Below are positions 29,648 through 58,730 of a stretch of DNA of 64,000 bases, in pieces. Numbering within the stretch: the first letter of the stretch is position 1; each line of letters opens with the position of its first letter. A program made the position numbers and the translations under genes. Origin of the DNA: Prevotellaceae bacterium UBA1075. Lineage in GTDB: Bacteria; Bacteroidota; Bacteroidia; Bacteroidales; Bacteroidaceae. The notes below the pieces were generated by a model. That model ran no database searches. It worked only from the letters and a program-made list of their open reading frames with translations, and was not told where the DNA came from. Location: contig DCCS01000032.1 in assembly GCA_002316015.1 (NCBI GenBank), positions 208,234 to 272,233 on the forward strand. The letters run 5' to 3'.

Positions 29648-29802
29648 GACCCGCCCCGCCGCGCATCCCCCGGATGCCCGCAGGCGGCCCGCGCCTGTTC
29701 TCTGCCACATCCGCCCTGCGCCTGCATGTGACAGGAGCACAAGAGACGGGCGGGAAAGACACTCCGGACGGAACAGGAAGGAAAAGCGTAAACCCATCAC
29801 CA

Positions 29803-30348
29803 ATGAACCAGAGATTCTACCGGCGGATACTGTACGGATGGCTGGGCTTCTCGGAGGTGGTCACAGAGCCACGCCCCAAGAAGTACATCATCGTGATGGC
29901 CCCGCACACAAGCAACTGGGACTTCATCATCGGGAACCTGTATTCGCGCGCCGAGGGTTTCCGCTGCAATTTCCTCATCAAGAGGGAGTGGTTCTTCTGG
30001 CCCATGGGCAAGCTGATGCGCAGGATGGGGGGCATACCCGTGTACCGCGACAAGCAGATGGGAACCACCGACCGGCTGGCACTGCTGGCCAGGAAGTCCA
30101 GGACATTCCACCTGTGCATCACACCCGAAGGGACACGCAAGCCCAACAGCGAGTGGAAGCTTGGCTTCTATTACATCGCGCTCAAGGCGGGACTGCCCAT
30201 ACTGCTGTACGGGCTGGACTACAGGGAGAGAAAGATAGAGTGTACCAAGACCATCATACCCAACGGTGACGTGGAGGGGCAGATGGCCGAGATAAAGGGC
30301 TACTTCGCGCGCTTCGTGGCAAGGAAGCCCGAAAATTTCGCAATATAA
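29803..30348 (+). CDS. PlsC-family acyltransferase (1-acyl-sn-glycerol-3-phosphate acyltransferase-like)
   Basis: The start was trimmed to MNQRFYRRILYGW. It has an HX4D-type motif (MAPHTSNWDF) and a PEGTR motif (ITPEGTRKPN). Confidence 0.8.
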   Translation: MNQRFYRRILYGWLGFSEVVTEPRPKKYIIVMAPHTSNWDFIIGNLYSRAEGFRCNFLIKREWFFWPMGKLMRRMGGIPVYRDKQMGTTDRLALLARKSRTFHLCITPEGTRKPNSEWKLGFYYIALKAGLPILLYGLDYRERKIECTKTIIPNGDVEGQMAEIKGYFARFVARKPENFAI

Positions 30349-42551: not shown

Positions 42552-43418
42552 TCAGAACTCCAGGTCAGCCCAATGTGGGTTGTGGTCAGACATCTGGCGC
42601 TTGGGGTTCTCGCGCTCGATATGGCTCTGCAGCACCTTTATGTTCGGGGTCACGAAGATGAAATCTATCTTTTTGGCCTTCAATGGGGATATGCGGCAGA
42701 AGTCCTGGAAGGTGTAGGGAACGCCGCTGTGGTGAGCCGTCATGTGGTAGGCGTCGTTCATCTTGAACTCCGAGTCCACCATCGTCTTGTATGCCTCATC
42801 GTCCTCCGTGATGTTGAAGTCGCCCGTCACCACGGCTGGCCGGTTGCCCACAATGCTCTGTATCTTGCTCATGATCAGTTTTGCGCTTTCCTTGCGTGCC
42901 ACCACACCCACATGGTCGTAGTGCGTGTTGATGGCCATGAACACCTTTCCGGTGGCCTTATCCCTGAGTTTCACATAACTGGCCACACGCTCCAGGGCCG
43001 CGTCCCAGCCCTTTGAGCCAGGCACATCGGGGGTCTCGCTCAGCCAGAAGTTTCCCTTCTCAAGAGGCTCGTACTTGTCTTTCCGGAAGAACACGGGGGT
43101 GAACTCACCCTTCTCCTTGCCGTCCGTGCGTCCCACGCCCACATAGTCATAGTCCTTCAGACGCTCGCGCAGGTCCTGCAGCTGCCTGCTGGTCACCTCC
43201 TGCATGCCCACCACGTCAATATGGTTGTCGAGCACATACTTCGCCACGTTGTCCTTGCGGGCGTCCCACCCGCAGCCTATCTTCTCGTCCGCGCCTGATA
43301 TGCAGCGCACATTGAACGTGCACCAGCGCACCCTGACGGGCTCCTCCACCTTTTCCTTTGCCCCTCCGAGCATGGGCAGCAGCACAGCCGCCAATGCCAC
43401 CAAGTACTTTCTCATCAT
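42552..43418 (-). CDS. Endonuclease/exonuclease/phosphatase (EEP) family protein, secreted
   Basis: 288 aa with a signal peptide. Motifs are VRWCTFNVR, VVGMQEV, NTHYDH, GDFN and a C-terminal SDHNP. Confidence 0.85.
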   Translation of the reverse strand: MMRKYLVALAAVLLPMLGGAKEKVEEPVRVRWCTFNVRCISGADEKIGCGWDARKDNVAKYVLDNHIDVVGMQEVTSRQLQDLRERLKDYDYVGVGRTDGKEKGEFTPVFFRKDKYEPLEKGNFWLSETPDVPGSKGWDAALERVASYVKLRDKATGKVFMAINTHYDHVGVVARKESAKLIMSKIQSIVGNRPAVVTGDFNITEDDEAYKTMVDSEFKMNDAYHMTAHHSGVPYTFQDFCRISPLKAKKIDFIFVTPNIKVLQSHIERENPKRQMSDHNPHWADLEF

Positions 43419-47014: not shown

Positions 47015-48263
47015 AGACGGGACGGCCGCCCGCATAGGCCACGATGAAAGCATCGGGGAAACTGCTCTTGACCCGTGCCAGGATGGCACGCGCTTCCTCA
47101 TAGTCGGGTGTCGTGGCATACAACACCTTATACACGGTACCTGCCCGCACAGTCCGCACAGGCGTGAGCCCCTTCAGGCGGGAATCGCCGGGGAGTGGCT
47201 TCTTGCTCACCGCAAAGAGTTGCACGCTGAACAGGGGACGCGCATCCTCCCCACCGCCTGGCCGTGTGACAGTGGCCTCGGCCTGCGCGGTGGTAGCCTC
47301 AGCCTGCGCGGTGGTGGGATTGCCGCTGTGCGCCGAGGAATCCTCGGGAGTGGGCGTGTCGCTGGCCGAAGTGCCAGAGGTGCCAGTCTGTGGACTGGGA
47401 GTGTCGGCCTGGGCCACGGTGGCAGGCTCCTCCTGCACACGCTCCTCCTGCACGGCAGGTGCGGGGCGCTCCTCCCTGGCAAAGGGGTCTTGCATGGGCA
47501 TCAGATCCTCGGCGCTGCTTGCCTCGCGCACGCGTCTCGCCTTCAGCCCGCTCACGGTGCCGCGTGACTGGCGCAGGGTGCGCAGGGTCTTCCCCTGGGA
47601 CTTGCCCTTGGTGACACTGTAATAGGCATCGAGGGCCTTGTAGATGTCAAGGGCTATCTGCCTCTGCCCGCGCTCGCTGCACATGTAGGCGGCATCTCCC
47701 ACGTTGCTCAGGAAGCCCACCTCGGTGAGTGCGGACGGCATCTCGGTGTGCATGAGCACATACAGGTTGCTGGCGCGCGCGCCACGGTCGGCCGTGCGGC
47801 CTGAGTTGAAGTAGCTGTTCTGAAGCAGCCAGGCCAGCAGTTCGCTGTTGTCGGCATTCCGTTCCAGTGTGCTGGCCTGCACCATGTCCTGTGCCGAACG
47901 CGTGTTGGCATAGAAAGTCTCGGTGCCCGAGAGCAGGAGGTTCTTCTCCGCGAAGTTGATGTGTATGCTCAGGAAGAGGTCGGCTTTCGCGCGGTTGGCA
48001 GTCTGGCAGCGCTCGTCCAGGGAGACGAAGGTGTCGTCTGTGCGTGTGAGCACGACCTTGATGCCGGGCCGGTTCTCGCGTATGAGGGCGGCCACGCGGT
48101 TGGTGATGTTGAGCGTCAGGTCTTTCTCCAGCACGTCTCTGATGCTGGTGCCCTGGTCTTTCCCCCCGTGTCCGGCATCGAGCACCCACACCAGGGGGCG
48201 CAACTGGCGGGCGGCGCATGCCAGAGGCAAGAGCAGCATGAGGACAAGTGTCAAGCGTTTCAT
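46983..48263 (-). CDS. N-acetylmuramoyl-L-alanine amidase (Amidase_3) with low-complexity linker and C-terminal SPOR domain
   Basis: 426 aa with a signal peptide. The amidase motifs are VLDAGHGGKDQG and LSIHIN. The linker is rich in P/T/A/E. The SPOR-like end is FSVQLFAVSKK...YKVLYATTPDYEEARAILARVKSSFPDAFIV. Its 3' end overlaps the convergent LOG gene by 32 nt. Confidence 0.88.
   Translation of the reverse strand: MKRLTLVLMLLLPLACAARQLRPLVWVLDAGHGGKDQGTSIRDVLEKDLTLNITNRVAALIRENRPGIKVVLTRTDDTFVSLDERCQTANRAKADLFLSIHINFAEKNLLLSGTETFYANTRSAQDMVQASTLERNADNSELLAWLLQNSYFNSGRTADRGARASNLYVLMHTEMPSALTEVGFLSNVGDAAYMCSERGQRQIALDIYKALDAYYSVTKGKSQGKTLRTLRQSRGTVSGLKARRVREASSAEDLMPMQDPFAREERPAPAVQEERVQEEPATVAQADTPSPQTGTSGTSASDTPTPEDSSAHSGNPTTAQAEATTAQAEATVTRPGGGEDARPLFSVQLFAVSKKPLPGDSRLKGLTPVRTVRAGTVYKVLYATTPDYEEARAILARVKSSFPDAFIVAYAGGRPVSTAEALRMSR
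47275..47316. repeat. In-frame 21-bp tandem duplication inside the amidase linker
   Basis: GCCTCGGCCTGCGCGGTGGTA is followed directly by GCCTCAGCCTGCGCGGTGGTG (19/21 identical). On the minus strand this encodes TTAQAEA twice. Confidence 0.8.
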
Positions 48264-48267
48264 GCCG

Positions 48268-48275
48268 CAAAGTTA
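48268..48275 (-). promoter_or_regulatory. -7 box TAACTTTG (minus) upstream of the amidase gene
   Basis: Plus strand reads caaagtta. Only 4 nt (CGGC) separate the box from the ATG at 48263. Confidence 0.45.
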
Positions 48276-48435
48276 CTGAAAAATATGTGCCTTTTACAGC
48301 GGAAACGTCCCTTTTTCACAGGCTTCCCCCCACCCCGTGTGATAAAGGGACGCGTCCGTGGGGACTGGGGCACAATGCCGCGTCTCCTCCAGCCATGTGC
48401 CCATTCAACCGTCCAGCCTGGGCTGGACGTTCAAC

Positions 48436-48515
48436 GCAGCGGCATGCGATGGCAGATGCAGCGGCATGCGTTGGCAGATGCGGCGGCATGCGTTGGCAGA
48501 TGCAGCGGCATGGCC
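48436..48515. repeat. 22-bp tandem repeat array, 3.6 copies
   Basis: The units are GCAGCGGCATGCGATGGCAGAT, GCAGCGGCATGCGTTGGCAGAT, GCGGCGGCATGCGTTGGCAGAT and a partial GCAGCGGCATGGCC. The reverse complement of the unit matches the 61241 array unit at 17 of 22 positions. Confidence 0.9.
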
Positions 48516-48525
48516 ATAAACACGT

Positions 48526-48556
48526 GAGGGACTCCAGCGCAGTGCTGGAGTCCCTC
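48526..48556. terminator. Perfect 13-bp hairpin downstream of the TonB_C gene (end of the glp block)
   Basis: GAGGGACTCCAGC (48526-48538) pairs with GCTGGAGTCCCTC (48544-48556) across a 5-nt loop. There is a T5 run on the plus side (GCGGCATTTTT) and a weaker T-rich tract on the minus side. Confidence 0.5.
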
Positions 48557-48578
48557 GCGGCATTTTTCAGAACTCATC

Positions 48579-49001
48579 TCAAGGAAGGCGGAACAGGATG
48601 GGAACCGTCCACCGTGAGGACACCTTCTTGCCCTTCACCTTGGCAGGCTTCCACTTGGGCATCCCTTGGATAAGCTGGATGACGGTCTCGTTGAACCCCT
48701 CGTCGGGTGTCTTCCTGATGCGGACGTCCTCTATCTTGCCCTTGCGGGTTATCACGAATGACACCATCACGCGGCCCGACTTTCCCTGCTGGCGCATCTG
48801 TTCTGGATAGGTGAGGTTTTTCTCCAGGTAAGCCATCAAGGCTTCTTCCCCTCCTGGGAATTGTGCGAGTTTGTCTACCGCGTCATACACCGAGTCTGAC
48901 GCTGCCTCCTGCACCGTCATCTCATGCGCCTCCACATTGTGGGGAGCCATCCACATGCCTGTTGTCATCAGGCATGCGGCAAAGATTGCACTTGTTTTCA
49001 T
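48579..49001 (-). CDS. Periplasmic TonB C-terminal-domain-only protein
   Basis: The track ORF was trimmed to the ATG at 49001 (MKTSAIFAACLMTTGMW, signal peptide). 140 aa. The TonB_C motifs are AQFPGGEEALMAYLEKNLTYPEQMRQQGKSGRVMVSFVI...G.I.DVRI. There is no N-terminal TM anchor or proline-rich spacer. Confidence 0.8.
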   Translation of the reverse strand: MKTSAIFAACLMTTGMWMAPHNVEAHEMTVQEAASDSVYDAVDKLAQFPGGEEALMAYLEKNLTYPEQMRQQGKSGRVMVSFVITRKGKIEDVRIRKTPDEGFNETVIQLIQGMPKWKPAKVKGKKVSSRWTVPILFRLP

Positions 49002-49030
49002 TGTCTCATGTATTCGGGTTTCGGTGTTGA

Positions 49031-49861
49031 TCAAGTCCTGCTCTCGGCCAGCCACTCGCCCAGTTGCGCGATGTCGCGGGCAATGATGTCGGGCTGCCGG
49101 GGAGCCTGCCGTGCCACCTCCAGGGTGGTCTCGCCCGAGAGCACCAGGCATCCCACGGCCCCGGCATTGTGTGCCATGGCAATGTCGGTGTAGATGCGGT
49201 CGCCCACCATGCATATCTCCTGGGGGCGCAGGCCCATCTGTTGCTGTATGCCCAGCAGCATGTTGGGGTCGGGCTTGCCCAGCGTGACATCGGGCTTGCG
49301 GCCTGCCGCCGACTCCAGCATGCGGCAGATGCTGCCACAGTCGATCAGGATGGTGCGCTCGTCGGTGGGGCACACGAGGTCGGGGTTGGTGGCTATGTAG
49401 GGAAGTCCTTGCCTGATCCACCAGGCCGCGCGGCACGCGCGGCTGTAGGTGAGTGTCATGTCGAAGGCTGCCACCACTATGTCGGGCACGTCATCGGGGT
49501 CATCGGCTGTGGAGATGAAGCCCGCCTTGACAAACTGCTCCGTCATGCTGGGAGTGCCCAGCAGGAAGAGTTTCCGGGCCTGGGGATAATGGGCATGGAT
49601 GTAGTCGATGGTGGCGATGGTGGTATTGTATATCTCCTGCTCGGTGGCATGGATGCCCATGTGCTCGAGTTTCTGCAGGTATGCGTCGATGCTCTTGCTG
49701 GGGTTGTTGGTGAGGAAAGAGTAGGTGATACCCATCTTGCCCAGCCTATCGAGGAACGGGATGGTGAAGGGGAAGACCTTGCTCCCCATATAGATGGTCC
49801 CGTCCATGTCCAGTGCCACGTGGCGCACGCCGCGCAGCAATTCCTTAGTCCTCTGTTCCAT
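49031..49861 (-). CDS. HAD-superfamily subfamily IIA hydrolase (NagD/AraL-like sugar-phosphate phosphatase)
   Basis: 276 aa. Motif I is ALDMDGTIY, motif II FLTNNPS, then KPDP and motif IV GDRIYTDI. The start overlaps the upstream transporter gene by 17 nt. Confidence 0.88.
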   Translation of the reverse strand: MEQRTKELLRGVRHVALDMDGTIYMGSKVFPFTIPFLDRLGKMGITYSFLTNNPSKSIDAYLQKLEHMGIHATEQEIYNTTIATIDYIHAHYPQARKLFLLGTPSMTEQFVKAGFISTADDPDDVPDIVVAAFDMTLTYSRACRAAWWIRQGLPYIATNPDLVCPTDERTILIDCGSICRMLESAAGRKPDVTLGKPDPNMLLGIQQQMGLRPQEICMVGDRIYTDIAMAHNAGAVGCLVLSGETTLEVARQAPRQPDIIARDIAQLGEWLAESRT

Positions 49862-51296
49862 ATCCGTCTGCTTTTGCTTTCCACATCATACTGAAGGTGA
49901 GCACGCCCACCAGTGCCACACCTATCATGCCCATGAACACATAGTCCCAGCTGCGCTCGGGATTGACCTTGTTCATCAAGTCCACAAACATGCCCACGCC
50001 TATGCCAGACACCAGTCCGCTCGCGTAACCGAACAGCCCCACGAAGCCATTGGCGGTGGCGGCGGCGCGGTTGGTGGCCTGGTTGGCGGCGGCAATGCCT
50101 ATGAGTGCCTGCGGGCCGTAGATGCAGAAGCCCGCCATGGCCAGCACGACCACCATGAGCCACGCGGGAGTCTGGGCGGGCAGCACGAGGAAGACACCCA
50201 TGAACACGGCCACGCCCAACATGCAGAACAGGCAGGTGCGGTGGGCGCGGCCCTGCAGCCAACGGTCGGTAATCCATCCGAAGAAGAGGGTGCCCAGGAT
50301 GCCGAATATCTCGAACAGAGCCACCGTCCAGCCCGCGTGCGAAAGACTCATGCCACGGGCTTCCTTGAGGAACGTCGGGCCCCAGTCGAGCACGGCGAAG
50401 CGGACTATGTACACCAGGAAATTCGATATGGCCAGAATCCATATCCAGCGGTTGCGGAACACCATCCTGCGCAGGAACTTCTTGTATTCCGCCTCGCCCG
50501 CGCTGCCTTTCTTGTTGACCGTGTGGATTTCGGCAAGCCCCACTGACGAGGGGGTGTCACGCAAGAAGGCGAAGATGAACACCGAACCGGCCAGGGCGAT
50601 GGTGGCGGGAATCCAGAAGCACCACCGCCAGGCCCCGTAGTGCGAGGCCGACTCGATGACGCTCTGCATGCGCTCCGCGTCACAGGTGTCCACATGCAGG
50701 TTGGCGGCGATGGCGGCCACGATGTCGGGGTTGGAGGACATGTTCTCGCCCATCGTGCCCATCACGTAGCCACACAGGATGGCCACGATGCTGGCTCCCA
50801 GGGAGTGGGAGGTGTTCCACACCGACATCTTGGTGGCCAGCTCGTCGGACGGAACCCAGTGGCTCAGCAGGCGCGCGCACGGAGGGAAGCCGCAGCCCTG
50901 GAAGAAATTGTTGAGCAGCAGGATAATGCCAAAGACGAGCACCATCATGTTGGTGAACTGCGGGCCGGAGGTGTCACCCGTAATCAGGGCACTGAGGTCG
51001 GCGCCGAACCCGAAGGCATAGTTGGCCACGGCACAGAGCAGAAGCCCTATGGCCATGTGGTAGCGCGCGTTCATGCGGTCGGCCATGAAGCCGTTGAGGA
51101 AGCGGCTAAGGCCATAGGTCACCGTGACCAGCGACATGATAACTCCGAAACTCGTCTTTGTGATGCCGTATTCGGCGCTGAGCCCAGGGATGGCAAACGA
51201 GAAGTTCTTGCGAACAAAATAGAACAGGGCATAACCTACCATCGTGACGATGATGGTGCGCCACTGCCAATAGAGGAAACTCTTATTGGTCTTCAT
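49845..51296 (-). CDS. glpT: MFS organophosphate:Pi antiporter (GlpT/UhpC family)
   Basis: 483 aa. The N-terminus WRTIIVTMVGYALFYFVRKNFSFAIPGL resembles E. coli GlpT (GYAAYYLVRKNFALAMPYL). It has 12 predicted hydrophobic segments. Substrate specificity is not determinable from sequence. Confidence 0.85.
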   Translation of the reverse strand: MKTNKSFLYWQWRTIIVTMVGYALFYFVRKNFSFAIPGLSAEYGITKTSFGVIMSLVTVTYGLSRFLNGFMADRMNARYHMAIGLLLCAVANYAFGFGADLSALITGDTSGPQFTNMMVLVFGIILLLNNFFQGCGFPPCARLLSHWVPSDELATKMSVWNTSHSLGASIVAILCGYVMGTMGENMSSNPDIVAAIAANLHVDTCDAERMQSVIESASHYGAWRWCFWIPATIALAGSVFIFAFLRDTPSSVGLAEIHTVNKKGSAGEAEYKKFLRRMVFRNRWIWILAISNFLVYIVRFAVLDWGPTFLKEARGMSLSHAGWTVALFEIFGILGTLFFGWITDRWLQGRAHRTCLFCMLGVAVFMGVFLVLPAQTPAWLMVVVLAMAGFCIYGPQALIGIAAANQATNRAAATANGFVGLFGYASGLVSGIGVGMFVDLMNKVNPERSWDYVFMGMIGVALVGVLTFSMMWKAKADGYGTED

Positions 51297-51350
51297 CTCT
51301 TGAAATAGTGTTATGTGGTTATCTTGTTAAAAGTCTGTGTGGAACGGCTC

Positions 51351-52682
51351 TCAGGCAAAGTGGGAACTCATCAGGCGGTCGGCCCACTCTTCCATCGTGC
51401 CCATGCGCACCGCCACATCAAAGATGGTGTAGCGGCGGCGTATCTGCTGGGAGCGTATGATGGTGGCACGCATCTGCTCACGGCCGAGGCCAATGTCGCG
51501 GGGATGGACGGGCGCACCCACGGCCTTGAGCCTCCCGATGGCCTGCGGCACGGTGAGCAGCTGCTGGCGCAGGCGGCTCTTCAACTCGTCCTGGCGGTCT
51601 CGCATAATCTCAAAATGCCTGCGCAATTCCTCGGGCGATGAGTACTTGGCCTCTATCTCGCCTGCTGCGAAGGTGGGGAAATCCGATTTGCGGAACATCC
51701 TGAGTGATGCCTCCTTCTGTTCCTCAAGAGATGGCCAGCGCATCACCAGCGCGTCAATGTCAAGCGTGGAGAGGTCTGTGTGGAGCAGTTGCTCGTAGAA
51801 GAACAGGGACACGATGGTGCCTATGCTCACCTGGAACCCGTGCGAGGGAGCCTGGCCGTCGGGCGTCACGAATCGGTCCATGTTGAGCATGTGGCTTATC
51901 TGGTGCTCCGCGCCACTGGCCGGACGGCTCGACGCGGGATAAGCCTGCATGGCGAAACCGCCCAGCATCAGTCCCTCGGCCAGTGCCTGGAGAGCCTTGG
52001 GGTCACCCTCGCGACAGGCTTCGGGATGCGACAGGGCATCGTGCAGTCCGCCCTGCACGATGTTCCACGGGGTGGGGTCAATGGGCTCCACCCCCAGCAC
52101 ATCGGCCACAATCCAGTCGGCACCGGCGGGCACCTTGGCCATGAGGTCGGCATAGCCGCTGGCAGTCATGCCGGCAGGAGCAGTGGCCAGCACATCCACA
52201 TCGGCCACCACGGCCTGCGGGGCCGCGCACTTGTAGGTGCTCTTGATGCCGTCCCTGGTGATTGACGCGCCAAAGGCGACGTACCCGTCCATGGACGCCG
52301 CAGTGGCCACCACCATATAAGGGCGGCCCTGGTGTGCGGAGCACAACTTGGTGATGTCGTTGATGGTTCCCGACCCCACGGCCACAGCCACGGCACCGGT
52401 GTGCGAGAGTTTCGCGTCGAGTTGCTCTATATACTTCCATTCGGCATGCATGTCAGCGTCCTTGAACACGATGGAAGCGTCAGTCTCCACTCCCGCCTGC
52501 CGCAAGAGGGTGTCCACCCTCTCGCCTGCCACCGCCCATGTGGCGGCGTGTGCCACCACCACGGCCTTCTTGCCGGGGAACTGGCTCTTGAACACCTGGG
52601 GCACTTTGTCCAGGACACCGCTTCCGATCTCCAGGGCGTGTGTCTGTGTGGCGTTGCTCAACGCCAGTTGTACTCTATCCAT
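51351..52682 (-). CDS. AraM/EgsA-type sn-glycerol-1-phosphate dehydrogenase homolog (Fe-ADH/DHQS-like superfamily)
   Basis: 443 aa. It aligns by eye with my recollection of B. subtilis AraM. [35 protein letters not shown] matches [50 protein letters not shown] matches [30 protein letters not shown] matches SRPASGGEHHISHWI. The metal ligands D/H/H are conserved. Confidence 0.8.
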   Translation of the reverse strand: [443 protein letters not shown]

Positions 52683-52727
52683 ATCGGAGTTTTTGGGTTT
52701 GCCGGGGTGGCTGTTGCTTGTTCCTTG

Positions 52728-54008
52728 TCATGCCAGTCCGTTCAGGCGCCGGGTCTCCTCCACGTCCATGGCCTCGGCCAGGATGCTGATTGGATGCATC
52801 ACCCTGGCCCGTGTGGACATCTCTATCTGCCACTTGCATGTCTCGCAGTCGCACACCACACAGTCGGCATGGGCGTCCTCTATCTGGCGGAAGAGGCTGG
52901 CCCCTATCTTTTGGGATATGCCGTAGTTCTCCACCTTGAACCCGTAGGTGCCGCCGATGCCGCAGCATTGCGAGTCCAGGATCACGAGGTCCACGCCGGG
53001 AATCATCTTGATGAGCTCGGTGCTGTATATGGCCCAGCCCAGCCTCTCCATGTGGCAGGCGGTGTGGTAGGCCAGCCTGCGGCGGTAGTCCTTGCGGAAC
53101 GCGAGCCTCACGTTCCCGTTCTCCACCAGGCGGAAGATGTACCTGGTGGCCAGCGAGAGGTGCTTCCGTGCCACATCGTTGTTGATGTGCAGCAGATGCT
53201 CGTACTCCTCGCGCATGGTGAAGGTGCACGTGCTGCCGGTGGCGATGATGTCCATGCCCCGTGCTGTCGCGCGCCTCATGGCGGCCATGTTGGCCACACC
53301 CTGTCGGCGCGCCTCGCGGGGCATGCTGTTGGTTATCTTGGCCACTCCGCAGCACTTCTCCCCCTGGAGCAGCTGCACTCCGTAGCCTATGGCGTTCATC
53401 ACCCCCACGAGTTCCTGTCCGAGCTGCGGGTAGTTGTAGTTGACATAGCAGCCATGGAAGAATCCCACCTGGTGCGGATAGCGCAGTTGCTCCCCGGCAC
53501 AGTTCTTCTGGTACCACTTGCGGAACGTCTGCGCCGCATACTTGGGCATCGTCCTGCGCTTGTCGATGGCCATGATGCCATGCATGAACACCGTCTTGAA
53601 GAGTGGCATGGCCAGCATGCCATTCACGAGCGGTGCCATGTGCGTGGCCATTGTGCCCACGAAGTCGGTGTTGCACAGGAGCGTCTCGCGCAGGAATGGG
53701 AAGGGTCTCCATGAGCGCGCGTAAGGCGCGTAACGGATGCGCGCGCTCTGTATGATGTCGCCTATCTGCACGCCTTGGGGGCACGCCACCTCGCACCGCT
53801 TGCAGTTGAGGCACATCTTCAGAGCCTTGTCGTCATAGTAGCGCGGGTCTTTCATCCGGTACCGCTCACCGTCGGGGCCCGCCTGCTTGGGGCCTGGATA
53901 CCGTGTGGTCACGCCCGACACGGGGCAATAGACCGTGCATATCGAGCATTTGAGGCAAGCCTCCAGTTCCTTCTCGCTGATGCTCAACAGTTGTATCTTC
54001 TTGGACAT
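52728..54008 (-). CDS. glpC: Anaerobic glycerol-3-phosphate dehydrogenase subunit C
   Basis: The start was trimmed to the ATG at 54008 (MSKKIQLLSISEKELEACLKCSICTVYCP). It has two 4Fe-4S motifs (CLKCSICTVYCP, CLNCKRCEVACP) and two CCG cysteine-rich domains (EKCCG, SQCCGIGG). Confidence 0.9.
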   Translation of the reverse strand: MSKKIQLLSISEKELEACLKCSICTVYCPVSGVTTRYPGPKQAGPDGERYRMKDPRYYDDKALKMCLNCKRCEVACPQGVQIGDIIQSARIRYAPYARSWRPFPFLRETLLCNTDFVGTMATHMAPLVNGMLAMPLFKTVFMHGIMAIDKRRTMPKYAAQTFRKWYQKNCAGEQLRYPHQVGFFHGCYVNYNYPQLGQELVGVMNAIGYGVQLLQGEKCCGVAKITNSMPREARRQGVANMAAMRRATARGMDIIATGSTCTFTMREEYEHLLHINNDVARKHLSLATRYIFRLVENGNVRLAFRKDYRRRLAYHTACHMERLGWAIYSTELIKMIPGVDLVILDSQCCGIGGTYGFKVENYGISQKIGASLFRQIEDAHADCVVCDCETCKWQIEMSTRARVMHPISILAEAMDVEETRRLNGLA

Positions 54009-54045
54009 AACGCTTCCCTTGTGTTGTTTCTCCTGTATGCGCGTA

Positions 54046-55293
54046 TTATTTCTCCAGTATGCGCTGCGCCACGCGCAGGGCCGTGACCATGTCCACCCCG
54101 GCCCCGTCGGCCTGCCTTGCCGCGTTGTGGCCACCCAGCACAGCCCCTGCCGCATAGAGGTTGCTGATGGCCCGCCCGCCCTTTAGTGCCTGCATGGACG
54201 CGTTCACCCTCACCCCATAATACATGTAGGGCTGGTCGTCAAAGACCGACGGGCTCACCCACTGCATGCGGTCGGCGGGGGCTGTGGTGTCCAGGTCAAA
54301 GACAGGCTCGTATACCCGCTCGTAGTTGGCCTTGAGCCCGTCGCTGGCAAAGGAGCCCGTCGCGAGCACAAAGTCATCGGCCTCCAGCCGTTCGTCGGGC
54401 AGCAGGGATGTCTCCACAAAGTGCAGGTGGCCGTCCTTGATCCGCCCCCCCGTCACGGTGTTTCCCAGCATGTACACCCCGCCCAGGCTGGCGAAGTGCT
54501 TCCGCAGCAGTGTCTGCACGCGCACGCCCGGCACCGAGGGTGGCATGGTGCTGAGGAAATGCAGGGGCTTCTGTACGCGTCCGCGTATGAACTCCACCGC
54601 CTCCTGCGAGTCCAGTCCCACTATCGCGGGCATGATGACGGCCTCGGCTCCGGAGGCCGCCTTGTTGATGCGGGCGGCGACCTGCTGCAGTTTCTTGTCA
54701 CGGGCGAGCACCTTGGCCAGGTTGGCCGAGCGCATCTCTGAGGGGCTTTGCCGCCTGTGTGTCAGCGAGGGCACCGACATGGAAGCCGTCTCCACCTGCG
54801 CTCCCAGCCGCCGCAGTCCCTCGGTGACGAGGGACACGGGGAAGTCCATGAAGCCAGGCACGCTGACCAGGAGCACCTTCCTGTAGGGGAACGACTCCGG
54901 ATCCTGCACCGTCAGGTAGTCATCGAGGGAGAACCATGTGGGTCTGAGCGACCCGGTGGGGGTCATGCGGAAGTGGTTGTGTGTCATTCCGCCCTGTCCG
55001 CTGAGCCCGCTCTCGGTGAATATTCTGAGAGCCTGCGTGGCCAGCAGGGGCACGTTGTCAATCCCCACCAGATGATACGGGTGCTTGGCATCAAGCGCGT
55101 GTATGGCCTCGAAGGGGTTGGTCACCTGTTGTCCGCAGGTGTCGTAACCCAGTATGTCAAATGAGCCCGAGCTGAAATGTAACGTGCTTTGCCCTGCGGC
55201 GATGATTGCCACATGACGTCCCTCGCGTGCCAGGGCTATGCCGCAAAGCAGCCCGCTTAACCCGCCGCCAATGATTATGTTGTCAAATTTCAT
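54046..55293 (-). CDS. glpB: Anaerobic glycerol-3-phosphate dehydrogenase subunit B
   Basis: 415 aa. The N-terminal FAD fold is DNIIIGGGLSGLLCGIALAREG, and it sits between glpA and glpC. Confidence 0.9.
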   Translation of the reverse strand: MKFDNIIIGGGLSGLLCGIALAREGRHVAIIAAGQSTLHFSSGSFDILGYDTCGQQVTNPFEAIHALDAKHPYHLVGIDNVPLLATQALRIFTESGLSGQGGMTHNHFRMTPTGSLRPTWFSLDDYLTVQDPESFPYRKVLLVSVPGFMDFPVSLVTEGLRRLGAQVETASMSVPSLTHRRQSPSEMRSANLAKVLARDKKLQQVAARINKAASGAEAVIMPAIVGLDSQEAVEFIRGRVQKPLHFLSTMPPSVPGVRVQTLLRKHFASLGGVYMLGNTVTGGRIKDGHLHFVETSLLPDERLEADDFVLATGSFASDGLKANYERVYEPVFDLDTTAPADRMQWVSPSVFDDQPYMYYGVRVNASMQALKGGRAISNLYAAGAVLGGHNAARQADGAGVDMVTALRVAQRILEK

Positions 55294-55320
55294 TCGCTTG
55301 TCACTTTAATGCATGCACAG

Positions 55321-56952
55321 TCACCATGCGCTGTCCTGGGTCGTTCTCAAGTCTGCGGCTCCTATTCCGCACAGGTCCTGGTAGATGTGTGCGGTGAGTT
55401 GTGCCTCGCTCAGTGTGGCTCCCCATGCCACAGGGTACATGCCCCTCCACCGCTCGTTGATGAACGCGGCCGTGTCGGCAACGGTGTCCTTGGGAGACCT
55501 GCCCAGCAATTGGCTTATCAGGCATGATGCCCTGAGCGTGCACAACTGCCCCTGGCATGTGCCCATGCCCACCCTCGTGCGGCGGCGCAACTGGTCGATG
55601 CTGTCCACCGCGTGGTTGCTGAGGGCGTGCTTCACCTCGCCCACCGTAACCTCCTCGCACTCACACACCAATGAGTTGTCTATCTCGTCATCAGAAGCGA
55701 TGCTGCCTGCAAGCGAGCCGTGACGGCCAAGGCGTGCCATGAAGGCAAAGATTTGCTTCTCGGGCAACTTCACCTCGCTCTCCTCTGCGCCCGGCAGTGG
55801 GGTTACGGCTGTCATGCAGGGCTTGTCGACGCCCAGCTTCCGGCACACCATGTCGGTGGCCTGTTCGGCCATGGCACGGTACGTCATGAGTTTTCCGCCG
55901 GTGATGGTGATGAAGCCGGCCAGTCCGTCGCGGCTCTCGTGGTCCAGGCACACGATGCCCCGGCTGATGCTTCGGCCACTGGGGTCATTGTCGCTTGCCA
56001 CCAGCGGGCGCACGCCTGAGTATGCGCGCAGGATGCGCGTGCTTGCCAGCGAGGGCACCAGTTGCATGCCCTCGGTCAGCAGCGTCTCCACCTCCCGCTG
56101 TGTGACCCTCATGTCGTCCACGGTCTCAATGGGCACGCGGTCAGATGTGGTGCCCAGCACGGTGATGGCATCCCCCGGCACCAGGATGTCCGCGTTGGCG
56201 GGCTTACGGCAGCGGTTTATGACCATGTTGTTCACGCGGTGCCCAAAGATGAGCAGCGACCCCTTGGCCGGGAACATGCTTACCGTCACGCCGGCCTTCC
56301 TGGCCACGAGTGTGCCCCAGATGCCCGCCGCGTTGACTGTCACGCGAGCCCTGTGCTCATGCTCCTCGCCCGTGCGGTGGTCTTTCACGCGCACTCCGAG
56401 CACCCTGCCGCCCTCAATGATGAAGGACATCAACTCGGTGTGCGTAAATATCTGTGCCCCATGTCTGTAAGCATCCAGCGCATTGGCCATTGTCAGGCGA
56501 AACGGGTCGATAGACCCGTCGGGTACTCTCACTGCGCCCACAAGTGCAGGATTGACCGACGGCTCCAGCCGCATGGCCTCTTCGGGGGAGAGCGTGTCGA
56601 CCCTGATGCCGGCCTTGCGGCACGCCTCCACGAAGCGCGCCTGATAGGCCAGGTCATCCTCGGGTAGCGTGATGAAGAGTCCGTCATGCTGCTCCACATA
56701 CGGACGTGCGATGCGGCGCAGTATCATGTTCTCCTCGATACACTCGCGCGCCGACTCCTGGTCGGTGACCGCATAGCGTGCCCCGCTGTGCAGCAAGCCA
56801 TGGTTGCGGCCCGTGGCTCCGGTGGCCAGGTCGTTCCTCTCCACGAGCAGCACGCTCATGCCGCGCATGGAGCAGTCACGCGCCACGCCCACGCCGGTCG
56901 CCCCGCCGCCTATCACTATCACATCATATTCCTTCTGTGCGGTATCGCCCAT
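55321..56952 (-). CDS. glpA: Anaerobic glycerol-3-phosphate dehydrogenase subunit A
   Basis: 543 aa. Motifs are YDVIVIGGGATGVGVARDCSMRG, GATGRNHGLLHSGARY and a C-terminal BFD-like 2Fe-2S region (CECE...GMGTCQGQLC). Confidence 0.93.
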   Translation of the reverse strand: MGDTAQKEYDVIVIGGGATGVGVARDCSMRGMSVLLVERNDLATGATGRNHGLLHSGARYAVTDQESARECIEENMILRRIARPYVEQHDGLFITLPEDDLAYQARFVEACRKAGIRVDTLSPEEAMRLEPSVNPALVGAVRVPDGSIDPFRLTMANALDAYRHGAQIFTHTELMSFIIEGGRVLGVRVKDHRTGEEHEHRARVTVNAAGIWGTLVARKAGVTVSMFPAKGSLLIFGHRVNNMVINRCRKPANADILVPGDAITVLGTTSDRVPIETVDDMRVTQREVETLLTEGMQLVPSLASTRILRAYSGVRPLVASDNDPSGRSISRGIVCLDHESRDGLAGFITITGGKLMTYRAMAEQATDMVCRKLGVDKPCMTAVTPLPGAEESEVKLPEKQIFAFMARLGRHGSLAGSIASDDEIDNSLVCECEEVTVGEVKHALSNHAVDSIDQLRRRTRVGMGTCQGQLCTLRASCLISQLLGRSPKDTVADTAAFINERWRGMYPVAWGATLSEAQLTAHIYQDLCGIGAADLRTTQDSAW

Positions 56953-57018
56953 CTCTCTTCTCTGTAAGTTGTCCGCGTCGTCTCTTCGTGAACTCTCCGT
57001 CCCATTCTCCGCCGTGCC

Positions 57019-58686
57019 TTATGACAGCCCCTCGATGTGTCCGTTCACCAGGTCTATGCGCTCCGCCTGCGGACTCCTGGGCAATCCCGGCATCCGCATG
57101 ATGTCTCCCGCCACCAGCACCAGCATCTCCGCGCCACAGTTGATGACGATGTCACGCACGTTGACCGTGAACCCCCGGGGCACTCCGTAAGCCTTCGCGT
57201 CGGCCGAGAACGAGTACTGTGTCTTGGCGATGCACACCGGGTAGTGGCTGATGCCCATTTCCCGCACGCGCTGCAGCGCCTTCCTGGCTGTGGGTGAGAA
57301 TGTGACCCCGCTGGCCCCGTACACCTTGCGTGCCACGGCCTCGGCCTTCTCCTCCACGCTCATGCTGTCCTCGTAGGCCAGTCGCAGCGGCTCGCTGGGA
57401 TGCTCATCAATGGTTTGCACCACCAGGCGCGCCAGTTCCTCGGCTCCTGCCCCGCCCTCGTTGAAGGCGTTGTTGACGGCAAAGGGCACGCCCAGTTCCG
57501 CGCAGTGCCGGCGGCAGAGGTCAATCTCCCCGTCCGTGTCTGTGGCATAGCGGTTGAAGCACACCAGCACCGTCTGCCCGAATCCCTGTATGTTGTGTAT
57601 GTGCCTGTCCAGGTTGGCCAGTCCGCGTGCCAGCCCGTCGGCGTTGAGCCGCTTGATCTCCTCCAGGGGCACTCCCCCGTGCATCTTCAGCCCCTGTGTG
57701 GTGGCCACCAGCACGGTGAGGGCTGGCTGCAGCCCGCTCTTGCGGCACATGATGTCATAGAACTTCTCGGCGCCGAGGTCGGCGCCGAATCCCGCCTCGG
57801 TCACAACGTAGTCGCCAAAGGTGAGGGCCATTCTGGTGGCCAGCACGCTGTTGCATCCGTGCGCGATGTTGGCAAAGGGGCCGCCATGCACGAGGGCGGG
57901 TGTCTGCTCGGTGGTCTGCACCAGGTTGGGCAGCAGGGCGTCCTTGAGCAGGACGCATATCGCGCCCGCCACGCCCATGTCCTTGACTCTGAACGGGGAA
58001 CCGTCGGCCTTGATACCCAGCAGGATGTTCTCCACGCGGCGGCGCAGGTCGTCCTCCCCGCTTGCCAGACAGAGTATGGCCATGATCTCGCTTGCGGGTG
58101 TGATGTCAAATCCACTCTCCATCACCACCCCGTTGGTCTTGGCCCCCAGGCCCGTCACGATGGAGCGCAGGTTGCGGTCGTTGATGTCAATCACCCTCCT
58201 CCAGAGCACCTCGCGCAGCGAGAAGCCCTCGTCGCGGTGCTGGTAGATGTAGTTGTCGAGCAGGGCCGCAATCATGTTGTGCGCCGAGGTGACCGCATGG
58301 AAGTCACCCGTGAAGTGCAGGTTTATCTTGTCCATGGGCAGCACCTGGGCATACCCGCCGCCCGCCGCCCCGCCCTTCATGCCGAAGCACGGGCCCAGCG
58401 ACGGCTCGCGCAGCGCCACCACAGCCTTCTTCCCGATGCGGTTGAGGCCGAGCGCGAGCCCCACACTCACCGTGGTCTTCCCGATGCCTGCCTTGGTGGG
58501 TGTGATGGCGGTGACCAGTATCAGCCTGTGCTGCCTGGCACGCCTGTCATCTATCTGTTCCAGAGGAATCTTGGCGGCATACCTTCCATAGGGCTCTATG
58601 GCCTCGGGGGGAACGCCCAGGTCACCGGCTACCTGTGCGATAGGCTTCAGCGGTGTCTCGCGCGCAATCTCGATGTCAGTCTTCAT
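57019..58686 (-). CDS. fhs: Formate-tetrahydrofolate ligase
   Basis: 555 aa. Motifs are [47 protein letters not shown] and [14 protein letters not shown]. Confidence 0.97.
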
Positions 58687-58722: not shown

Positions 58723-58730
58723 CAAATGTA
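58723..58730 (-). promoter_or_regulatory. -7 box TACATTTG (minus) upstream of fhs
   Basis: Plus strand reads caaatgta, 36 nt upstream of the ATG at 58686. I found no further TAnnTTTG box between here and the end of the glp block at 48579. Confidence 0.5.

Follow-up and report, generated by a model that had tools for sequence, protein, structure and literature searches.

A long-form AraM/EgsA-family dehydrogenase homolog in a predicted glycerophosphate-utilisation operon of a Prevotellaceae bacterium

Introduction

The enzyme sn-glycerol-1-phosphate (G1P) dehydrogenase (G1PDH) is treated in the literature as the setter of archaeal lipid chirality, and its archaeal form, EgsA, is a protein of ~335-350 aa that is essential for lipid biosynthesis. 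The Bacillus subtilis relative AraM is encoded in the arabinose operon and feeds PcrB. The other enantiomer, sn-glycerol-3-phosphate (G3P), is the business of the Escherichia coli glp regulon (glpTQ/glpABC/glpD/glpR), which provides an antiporter, a phosphodiesterase, a quinone-linked G3P dehydrogenase and the DeoR-family repressor GlpR, but no G1PDH-like or HAD-IIA gene. Here we describe a locus that resembles both, found in a 64,000-nt stretch of Prevotellaceae bacterium UBA1075 (contig DCCS01000032.1, forward strand 208,234-272,233; hereafter the window). At its centre is the following gene:

51351-52682, minus strand: long-form AraM/EgsA-family (G1P dehydrogenase-like) NAD(P) oxidoreductase, 443 aa, ATG start

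Unlike araM, this gene lies in a glycerophosphate operon with no PcrB homolog detected nearby, and unlike the E. coli regulon that operon includes a G1PDH-like gene, a HAD-IIA phosphatase gene and an antiporter gene that has diverged from glpT. We propose that the window carries a glycerophosphate-utilisation operon whose AraM/EgsA-family enzyme would link sn-G1P to dihydroxyacetone phosphate (DHAP), so that both enantiomers would become usable; judged from sequence, we give this proposal about an even chance of being correct.

An earlier table of bacterial egsA/araM homologs includes those of Bacteroidetes, Verrucomicrobia and Planctomycetes (PMC5059525, Table 1), and such homologs have been discussed almost only in relation to lipid evolution and chirality (PMC5059525, PMC6431249, PMC7852524, PMC13400652). 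The full-text literature that we searched, outside which most subscription journals lie, contained no account of such homologs in glp, glycerophosphodiester phosphodiesterase (GDPD), GlpT or HAD loci, no catabolic role for them and no described route for the use of sn-G1P. Neither the enzyme family nor the glp-type operon is new, and it is their combination that implies an undescribed physiological role.

Results

The 443-aa protein falls in the AraM/EgsA branch

A first-pass annotation of the window, made by eye from its letters, had assigned the 443-aa protein to the AraM/EgsA group rather than to glycerol dehydrogenase (GldA) or 3-dehydroquinate synthase (DHQS). The open reading frame runs as that annotation had it, on the minus strand from an ATG, with its motifs at residues 103-112, 129-133 (ASMDG) and 252-264, and the assignment is upheld by NCBIfam, PDB, profile and Foldseek scores alike. 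The protein matches Pfam Fe-ADH_2 (PF13685; E = 4e-36) and so has the DHQS-like/Fe-ADH_2 fold. Among NCBIfam models the best is G1PDH NF002022, which scores 171 bits and matches residues 18-297 only, followed by GldA (48 bits), the halophile glycolaldehyde reductase (34 bits) and aroB (27 bits). The expected ranking of the G1PDH model above GldA and aroB was therefore obtained, although the score stays below the curated equivalog cut-off of 413 bits, a respect in which the window protein differs from archaeal EgsA; the model appears tuned to the archaeal proteins. RefSeq names close homologs of the protein sn-glycerol-1-phosphate dehydrogenase. Two GenBank entries from metagenome-assembled genomes (MAGs), HBE55770.1 and HBC29553.1, which share the 90%-identity cluster of the window protein (P0001), are named "3-dehydroquinate synthase", a label that is probably a misannotation because aroB scores 27 bits against 171 for G1PDH.

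Comparison with proteins of determined structure gave the same picture. A phmmer search of PDB sequences returned AraM (9h4x) as the top match (E = 2.7e-37), then the uncharacterised protein 3ce9 and the archaeal G1PDHs, with GldA and DHQS far behind. A family profile built from an alignment of 30 diverse full-length homologs scored AraM 9h4x at 290 bits and 3ce9 together with the M. jannaschii and P. calidifontis G1PDHs at 163-171 bits, as against at most 89 bits for GldA and at most 42 bits for DHQS. When the AlphaFold2 model of the protein (mean pLDDT 94.4, pTM 0.92) was compared with the PDB by Foldseek, AraM 9h4x ranked first (E = 1e-20, target-normalised TM-score 0.81, 26% identity), and archaeal EgsA (M. 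jannaschii 4rgq/4rgv, P. calidifontis 5fb3) has the same fold and motifs, with profile scores of 163-170 bits and target-normalised TM-scores of ~0.8. By these profile and structure scores, on which the placement rests, the window protein is a member of the AraM/EgsA (G1PDH) branch of the DHQS-like/Fe-ADH superfamily and represents a distinct long-form bacterial subfamily.

Sequence motifs are consistent with this placement. Two loops, GSGTI(N/H)D for the nucleotide and TA(A/P)S(M/V)DG, occur both in the window protein and in AraM, its best match in sequence and fold, as do the Asp and two His of the metal site, SRPASGxEH and RxRxT. D179, H260, H264, H281, R253, R415 and R417 show little or no variation across the 30 diverse and 118 close homologs, and K183 is also invariant in the family alignment. 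In the alignment, D179, H260 and H281 coincide with the superfamily's Asp/His/His metal triad; from what is known of GldA and DHQS we take these three to be metal ligands, and the invariant residues as a group to bind metal or phosphate. R253 sits in SRPASGAEH, and R415 and R417 in the C-terminal motif IRxRYTILD. SRPxSGxEH and the C-terminal RxRxT are common to AraM and the M. jannaschii and P. calidifontis G1PDHs, and the window protein carries both the metal ligands and the G1PDH motifs, whereas 3ce9 has Ser where the window protein has R253.

Two features set the protein apart. The long-form family has an extra ~70 residues relative to AraM and EgsA, at ~303-373, ahead of the shared C-terminal motif; the insertion is predicted from the structural model to be helical. 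In addition, the window's own clade (P0001-P0024, P0027, L005 and L006) has His (H45, codon 52548-52550) at the end of strand beta2, in VAHAATW rather than VADxxT, at a position that is Asp in ~90% of homologs and in AraM. An acidic residue here typically favours NAD over NADP, and because H45 replaces a near-invariant Asp the coenzyme preference may differ in this clade.

The gene lies within a predicted glp-type transcription unit

The neighbourhood of the gene was annotated as follows, in the order of transcription:

58723-58730, minus strand: candidate promoter of the whole unit, TACATTTG, a TAnnTTTG match 37 nt upstream of the fhs start
57019-58686, minus strand: fhs, formate-tetrahydrofolate ligase, 66 nt upstream of glpA (PF01268 in the genes called at locus L001)
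55321-56952, minus strand: glpA (NF008313 816 bits against a cut-off of 425; 60% identical to E. coli GlpA)
54046-55293, minus strand: glpB, subunit B (TIGR03378 410 bits against 174; 37% identical to E. coli GlpB)
52728-54008, minus strand: glpC, subunit C (TIGR03379 549 bits against 280; 52% identical to E. coli GlpC)
49845-51296, minus strand: divergent GlpT-like organophosphate:phosphate antiporter (OPA), MFS_1, 483 aa
49031-49861, minus strand: HAD-IIA (NagD-type) phosphatase (TIGR01460 134 bits, above the cut-off of 100), overlapping the antiporter gene by 17 nt
48579-48968, minus strand: small TonB_C-domain protein, 129 aa, last gene before the terminator (PF03544 in the genes called at L001)
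48526-48556, minus strand: intrinsic-terminator-like hairpin with a 13-pair stem after the tonB_C gene, the only strong one in 48000-57600

The intervals on either side of the 443-aa gene had been given as 45 and 54 nt and proved exact: the glpC stop lies at 52728-52730 and the gene starts at 52682, while its own stop occupies 51351-51353, followed by a gene start at 51296. The true start of glpC is MSKKIQ at 54008, since a longer frame to 54155 overlaps glpB and a 426-aa gene is called there in L001. GlpA, GlpB and GlpC are contiguous and all exceed their equivalog thresholds, as expected of an anaerobic G3P dehydrogenase. The first-pass description of the neighbourhood was right about GlpABC and the GlpT-like antiporter, and had overlooked the overlapping HAD-IIA gene.

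Because a sigma-70 promoter scan is uninformative for Bacteroidetes (one match against 2.4 expected), the Bacteroidetes -7 motif TAnnTTTG was used instead. The window contains 28 copies on its two strands, against 10.1 +/- 3.2 expected, usually just upstream of genes. After the candidate at 58723-58730, the next copy on the minus strand lies at 48268-48275, upstream of an amidase gene; no copy was found on that strand between 58723 and 48275, nor in a scan of the 66-nt gap between fhs and glpA. Six terminator-like matches occur on the minus strand in 48000-57600, of which the five besides the 13-pair hairpin have stems of 5-7 pairs and occur at chance frequency. These signals predict a single unit, (fhs)-glpA-glpB-glpC-g1pdh-antiporter-HAD-IIA-tonB_C, and the earlier view that the gene is embedded in a glpABC transcription unit is supported, there being no internal TAnnTTTG and no strong internal hairpin. 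Whether fhs belongs to it is less clear-cut: it is possibly co-transcribed with glpA, and the adjacency of the two is found only in close relatives. A 22-nt tandem repeat, GCAGCGGCATGCGTTGGCAGAT (3.5 copies, 94% matches), occupies 48436-48512, between the terminator hairpin and the amidase promoter motif.

The antiporter and the phosphatase

The antiporter scores 305 bits with TIGR00881, below the cut-off, 275 against 632 with TIGR00712 and 265 against 748 with NF008433, and so falls short of the GlpT equivalog. Its identity to E. coli GlpT is 31.5%, and the clade of dehydrogenase-linked antiporters ranges over 30-39%. Antiporters adjoining the dehydrogenase form a clade of their own, apart from the canonical-like GlpT paralogs at the same loci; such second OPA paralogs reach 49% (L007) and 45% (L017) identity to E. 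coli GlpT, with scores of 550 and 479 bits from the glpT model. The linked antiporters keep R45, R269 and H165 of GlpT, and all 29 of them have Phe in place of W138, whereas Trp is retained by the canonical-like paralogs from L007 and L017. We take R45 and R269 to bind phosphate, and H165 and W138 to have the functional roles that they have in GlpT. On sequence grounds W138F is a candidate specificity determinant of the linked antiporters, and the downstream transporter resembles an OPA glycerophosphate antiporter.

The HAD-IIA protein has as its PDB relatives NagD, TM1742, the M. tuberculosis G3P phosphatase 4i9f and mouse PGP/G3PP 7po7. The operon phosphatase shares its HAD-IIA subfamily with M. 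tuberculosis Rv1692 and mammalian PGP/G3PP, to which it has moderate similarity (~80 bits); the role of Rv1692 is in glycerophospholipid head-group recycling. In B. subtilis, araM presumably also adjoins a HAD-IIA phosphatase gene, araL.

The long-form family recurs beside glycerophosphate genes

The family is large, with more than 7,700 matches in a 90%-identity database; among 50%-identity representatives there are 3,747 matches at E <= 1e-3 and 776 at E <= 1e-30, with full-length matches down to ~31% identity. From a scan of species-representative genomes 80 loci were collected, 72 of which retained the anchor gene. They come from Bacteroidota (Prevotellaceae, Segatella, Alistipes/Rikenellaceae, Muribaculaceae, Odoribacter, Tannerellaceae, Pedobacter, Apibacter and Prolixibacteraceae) and, beyond these, from Opitutaceae and other Verrucomicrobiota, Tepidisphaeraceae, Lentisphaerales and Propionibacteriaceae; the long-form family spans Bacteroidota, Verrucomicrobiota, Planctomycetota and Propionibacteriaceae. 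Neighbours within four genes were clustered; the counts are approximate, since open reading frames were called crudely, from ATG starts and by greedy choice of the longest. The recurrent neighbours were:

HAD-IIA phosphatase: 32/72 loci, the most frequent, across phyla
GlpT-like antiporter: 30/72 loci
GDPD phosphodiesterase: 17/72 loci, mostly immediately upstream, Pfam-confirmed
DeoR-family regulator: 15/72 loci, DeoR HTH plus DeoRC, repressor-type by family
GlpA/GlpD-type dehydrogenase: 13/72 loci
GlpB: 5/72 loci
GlpC: 4/72 loci

At least one neighbour related to glycerophosphate, or a methylglyoxal synthase, was present at 52 of the 72 loci, with methylglyoxal synthase alone accounting for 4 of the 52. 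Most exceptions are Alistipes/Rikenellaceae loci, where the gene follows what were identified by eye as 2-oxoacid:ferredoxin oxidoreductase genes, and in four Alistipes loci (including L041 and L046) a methylglyoxal-synthase-like gene (MGS domain, 161 aa) lies directly upstream. The survey therefore points to the G1PDH-like gene, the divergent GlpT-like antiporter and the HAD-IIA phosphatase as the conserved core, rather than to the G1PDH-like gene with glpABC.

Linkage to glpABC had been left open as a possible peculiarity of this genome, and it is not: it occurs in several Bacteroidales lineages, Prevotellaceae among them, and in two gene orders. Full linkage is seen in the window, in L005 and L006 and in an unclassified Bacteroidales MAG (L017, 64% identity). 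A Parabacteroides MAG in many contigs (L086, 59% identity) has the window's glpABC gene order plus a second MFS gene, and a Tannerellaceae MAG (L031) has the different order g1pdh-antiporter-HAD-glpABC. A GlpD-type partner is found instead in Opitutaceae, in Prolixibacteraceae (L040, L056) and in MAGs labelled Bacteroidaceae/Bacteroides (L007, L016, L028). Linkage to a G3P dehydrogenase is thus recurrent and has been rearranged more than once. L006 (CAVKOT010000009.1), titled "Opitutae bacterium UBA4654", encodes an 89%-identical protein in the same fhs-glpABC-g1pdh-antiporter synteny, and its contig is probably mis-binned or its taxon label wrong.

Other arrangements occur. An RbtT/DalT/CsbX-family polyol MFS transporter (557 bits against 375) is encoded directly upstream in L040, L056, L048, L055 and L074, mostly Prolixibacteraceae, and may indicate that a polyol or polyol-phosphate is taken up. 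In the Opitutae MAG L049 the order is G1PDH-HAD-GlpD, with genes overlapping by 4 nt, and a stand-alone SorC-type regulator precedes the gene.

Phosphodiesterase fusions and SusC/SusD loci

Fusions of a GDPD domain to the G1PDH-like domain form four separate 50%-identity clusters (P0143, P0145, P0151 and P0164) within the top 150 representatives, each fusion being known from a single contig. The fused GDPD domains are taken to be cytoplasmic because they start directly at the HRG motif and have no signal peptide. Other fusion partners, likewise from single contigs, are NadD-like (P0142), RpiB/LacAB (P0147), DUF1667 (P0178) and a SorC sugar-binding regulator domain (P0209). A connection of P0142 to TagD and CDP-glycerol was considered and rejected, its N-terminal sequence being NadD-like (GSFNPIHIGH). 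The Streptococcus pneumoniae CDP-2-glycerol pathway (Gtp1/Gtp3) was also weighed as a parallel; the relevant paper gives no family assignments, and the pathway is kept as a lead only.

In Odoribacter (L013) the gene order is SusC-SusD-GDPD-MetallophosN/C-G1PDH-antiporter-HAD, and in Segatella baroniae DSM 16972 (L009) and Prevotella illustrans (L087) it is G1PDH-SusC-SusD-BACON-MetallophosN/C. The phosphoesterases encoded at these SusC/SusD loci are of the GDPD and calcineurin-like kinds, and the gene content suggests systems for using extracellular phosphodiester compounds.

Discussion

A proposed link between G1P and the DHAP pool

The family membership of the protein in sequence and fold, the architecture of its operon and the recurrent linkage of the family to glycerophosphate and diester genes are established above, and they can be read as parts of one pathway. 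According to this model the divergent GlpT-like antiporter would bring glycerophosphate in and carry phosphate out. The sn-3 enantiomer would be oxidised to DHAP by GlpABC, with electrons passing to the quinone pool, and the sn-1 enantiomer, which would be outside the reach of GlpABC and of canonical GlpQ-type enzymes, would be joined to the same DHAP pool by the G1PDH-like enzyme with NAD(P). Likely sources of sn-G1P would be lipoteichoic acid, the head groups of phosphatidylglycerol or cardiolipin, and archaeal lipids. Lipoteichoic acid consists of poly(sn-Gro-1-P), and GlpQ shows specificity for G3P (PMC7086022); from the stereochemistry of the lipid, phospholipase-C-type cleavage of phosphatidylglycerol would yield sn-G1P as well. 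The co-translated HAD-IIA phosphatase would offer a second outlet, from glycerophosphate to glycerol and phosphate, either to recycle phosphate for the antiporter or as a safety valve. In this scheme we infer the substrate of the enzyme and its chirality, the direction of flux, and the substrates of the transporter and the phosphatase. That both enantiomers are funnelled into DHAP had been one of two hypotheses in the first-pass annotation; genomic context favours it, since the neighbours are importers, secreted or cytoplasmic phosphodiesterases, DeoR-family regulators and quinone-linked G3P dehydrogenases, and does not prove it.

Several points weigh against this model. All G1PDHs characterised to our knowledge work physiologically as DHAP reductases, and oxidation of glycerophosphate by NAD+ is uphill (E0' ~-0.19 V for DHAP/glycerophosphate, -0.32 V for NAD+/NADH). 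Canonical GDPDs release G3P, not G1P, so the GDPD fusions would favour G1P only if their regio- or stereospecificity were unusual. A phosphatase is not obviously needed in a catabolic operon, and the His at position 45 departs from the Asp of most relatives. The shortfall against the NF002022 cut-off (171 against 413 bits) and the identity of only ~26% to AraM leave the substrate unfixed by sequence. There is, moreover, a cautionary precedent among halophiles, where the Halobacterium protein VNG_6270G, annotated as G1PDH, is a glycolaldehyde reductase without G1P/DHAP activity (PMC9700705).

Alternative functions of the enzyme

Because NAD-linked oxidation of glycerophosphate is thermodynamically uphill, the enzyme might run the other way, reducing DHAP with NAD(P)H to sn-G1P, which the HAD-IIA phosphatase would then split into glycerol and phosphate. 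We regard such a reductive overflow as unlikely, yet as a serious rival: it would ease overload with DHAP or sugar phosphates, re-oxidise NAD(P)H, regenerate phosphate and spare the G3P pool needed for lipids, in parallel with the methylglyoxal bypass. DHAP reduction is favoured by textbook potentials, HAD-IIA is the most frequent partner (32/72) and often translationally coupled, as in the 4-nt overlap of L049, and its relatives include proven glycerol-3-phosphate phosphatases. The gene directly upstream in four Alistipes loci encodes a methylglyoxal-synthase-like product that also consumes DHAP; araL presumably adjoins araM in B. subtilis; and H45 may alter the coenzyme preference in the window's clade. 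However, overflow leaves unexplained the fusions to cytoplasmic GDPD domains, the SusC/SusD loci with secreted phosphodiesterases and the distinct importer clade that travels with the gene, and the route G3P to DHAP to G1P to glycerol would achieve only what a G3P phosphatase does directly. Were it nonetheless correct, the pair would constitute a G1P-based glycerol overflow valve common to the araL-araM pair of B. subtilis. Improbable, too, in our estimate is that the long-form subfamily has diverged to another polyol, ketone or polyol-phosphate derived from phosphodiester breakdown, such as glycerol/dihydroxyacetone, glycolaldehyde, glycerol-2-phosphate or another polyol-phosphate. The score below the equivalog cut-off, the ~26% identity to AraM and the ~70-residue insertion would all accommodate a change of substrate, as would the polyol transporter of the RbtT/DalT/CsbX type directly upstream in five loci and a fusion to an RpiB/LacAB domain, and VNG_6270G provides the precedent for misannotation (PMC9700705). 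Set against this are R253 and the RxRxT arginines, which are invariant and common to AraM and the two archaeal G1PDHs while 3ce9 has Ser; the glycolaldehyde-reductase model, at 34 bits against 171 for G1PDH; and the partner transporter, which retains R45, R269 and H165 of GlpT.

The other hypothesis of the first-pass annotation was biosynthetic, with G3P converted through DHAP to G1P for an ether lipid or polyprenylglyceryl phosphate; a G1P-containing surface polymer would be a further destination. The one function proven for AraM and EgsA is biosynthetic supply (PMC4244643; Guldan 2008 as cited there). In Bacteroidetes, geranylgeranylglyceryl phosphate synthases (GGGPS) use G1P in vitro, and where they obtain it is said to be unknown (PMC7852524, PMC6431249), while G1P can be used by PlsY and PlsC (PMC13400652). 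Nevertheless the hypothesis finds no support here and we consider it very unlikely. A phmmer search with B. subtilis PcrB (identical to 3VZX) and G. kaustophilus PcrB from the PDB alignment gave no match at E <= 10 in six-frame translations of the window and 84 loci (L001-L084), the query being weak for group II GGGPS (4jej, 32 bits), and no GGGPS appears in the Pfam annotation of 28 window open reading frames. Prenyltransferases are not among the recurrent neighbours, the conserved partners being importers, hydrolases and DeoR-family regulators rather than lipid-synthesis genes, and the sole window gene of a lipid-synthesis type encodes a PlsC-type acyltransferase (29674-30348) that lies ~21 kb away on the other strand.

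Implications of a possible catabolic family

Returning to the proposed link between G1P and DHAP, the distribution of the family allows a broader and more tentative suggestion, which we think has somewhat less than an even chance: many Bacteroidota, Verrucomicrobiota and Planctomycetota may possess a dedicated, enantiomer-specific salvage pathway for sn-G1P. Its four parts would be G1P-releasing phosphodiesterases (secreted or fused), a G1P-preferring GlpT-like clade, a catabolic G1PDH and a G1P phosphatase. With such a pathway, if real, lipoteichoic acid, phosphatidylglycerol head groups or archaeal lipids would become food for these bacteria, and G1PDH would gain its first catabolic role; most bacterial egsA/araM homologs in "lipid divide" phylogenies would then be catabolic genes and not genes of lipid biosynthesis. 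A catabolic long-form family would also fill a gap, since lipoteichoic acid and the head groups of phosphatidylglycerol are rich in sn-G1P, which GlpQ is unable to set free (PMC7086022). The loci described here supply candidate G1P-specific transporters, phosphodiesterases and phosphatases.

Other genes of the window

The roughly 3-fold excess of TAnnTTTG in the window supports a Bacteroidota origin, despite a G+C content of ~60%. Two further genes lie 5-8 kb past the end of the operon and recur as neighbours in L001-L003:

41020-42246, plus strand: PLD-like protein with two PLDc_2 domains and, by eye, a hydrophobic signal-peptide-like N-terminus
42552-43418, minus strand: endonuclease/exonuclease/phosphatase-family protein with a signal-like N-terminus

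Both proteins could act on extracellular phospholipids or phosphodiesters.

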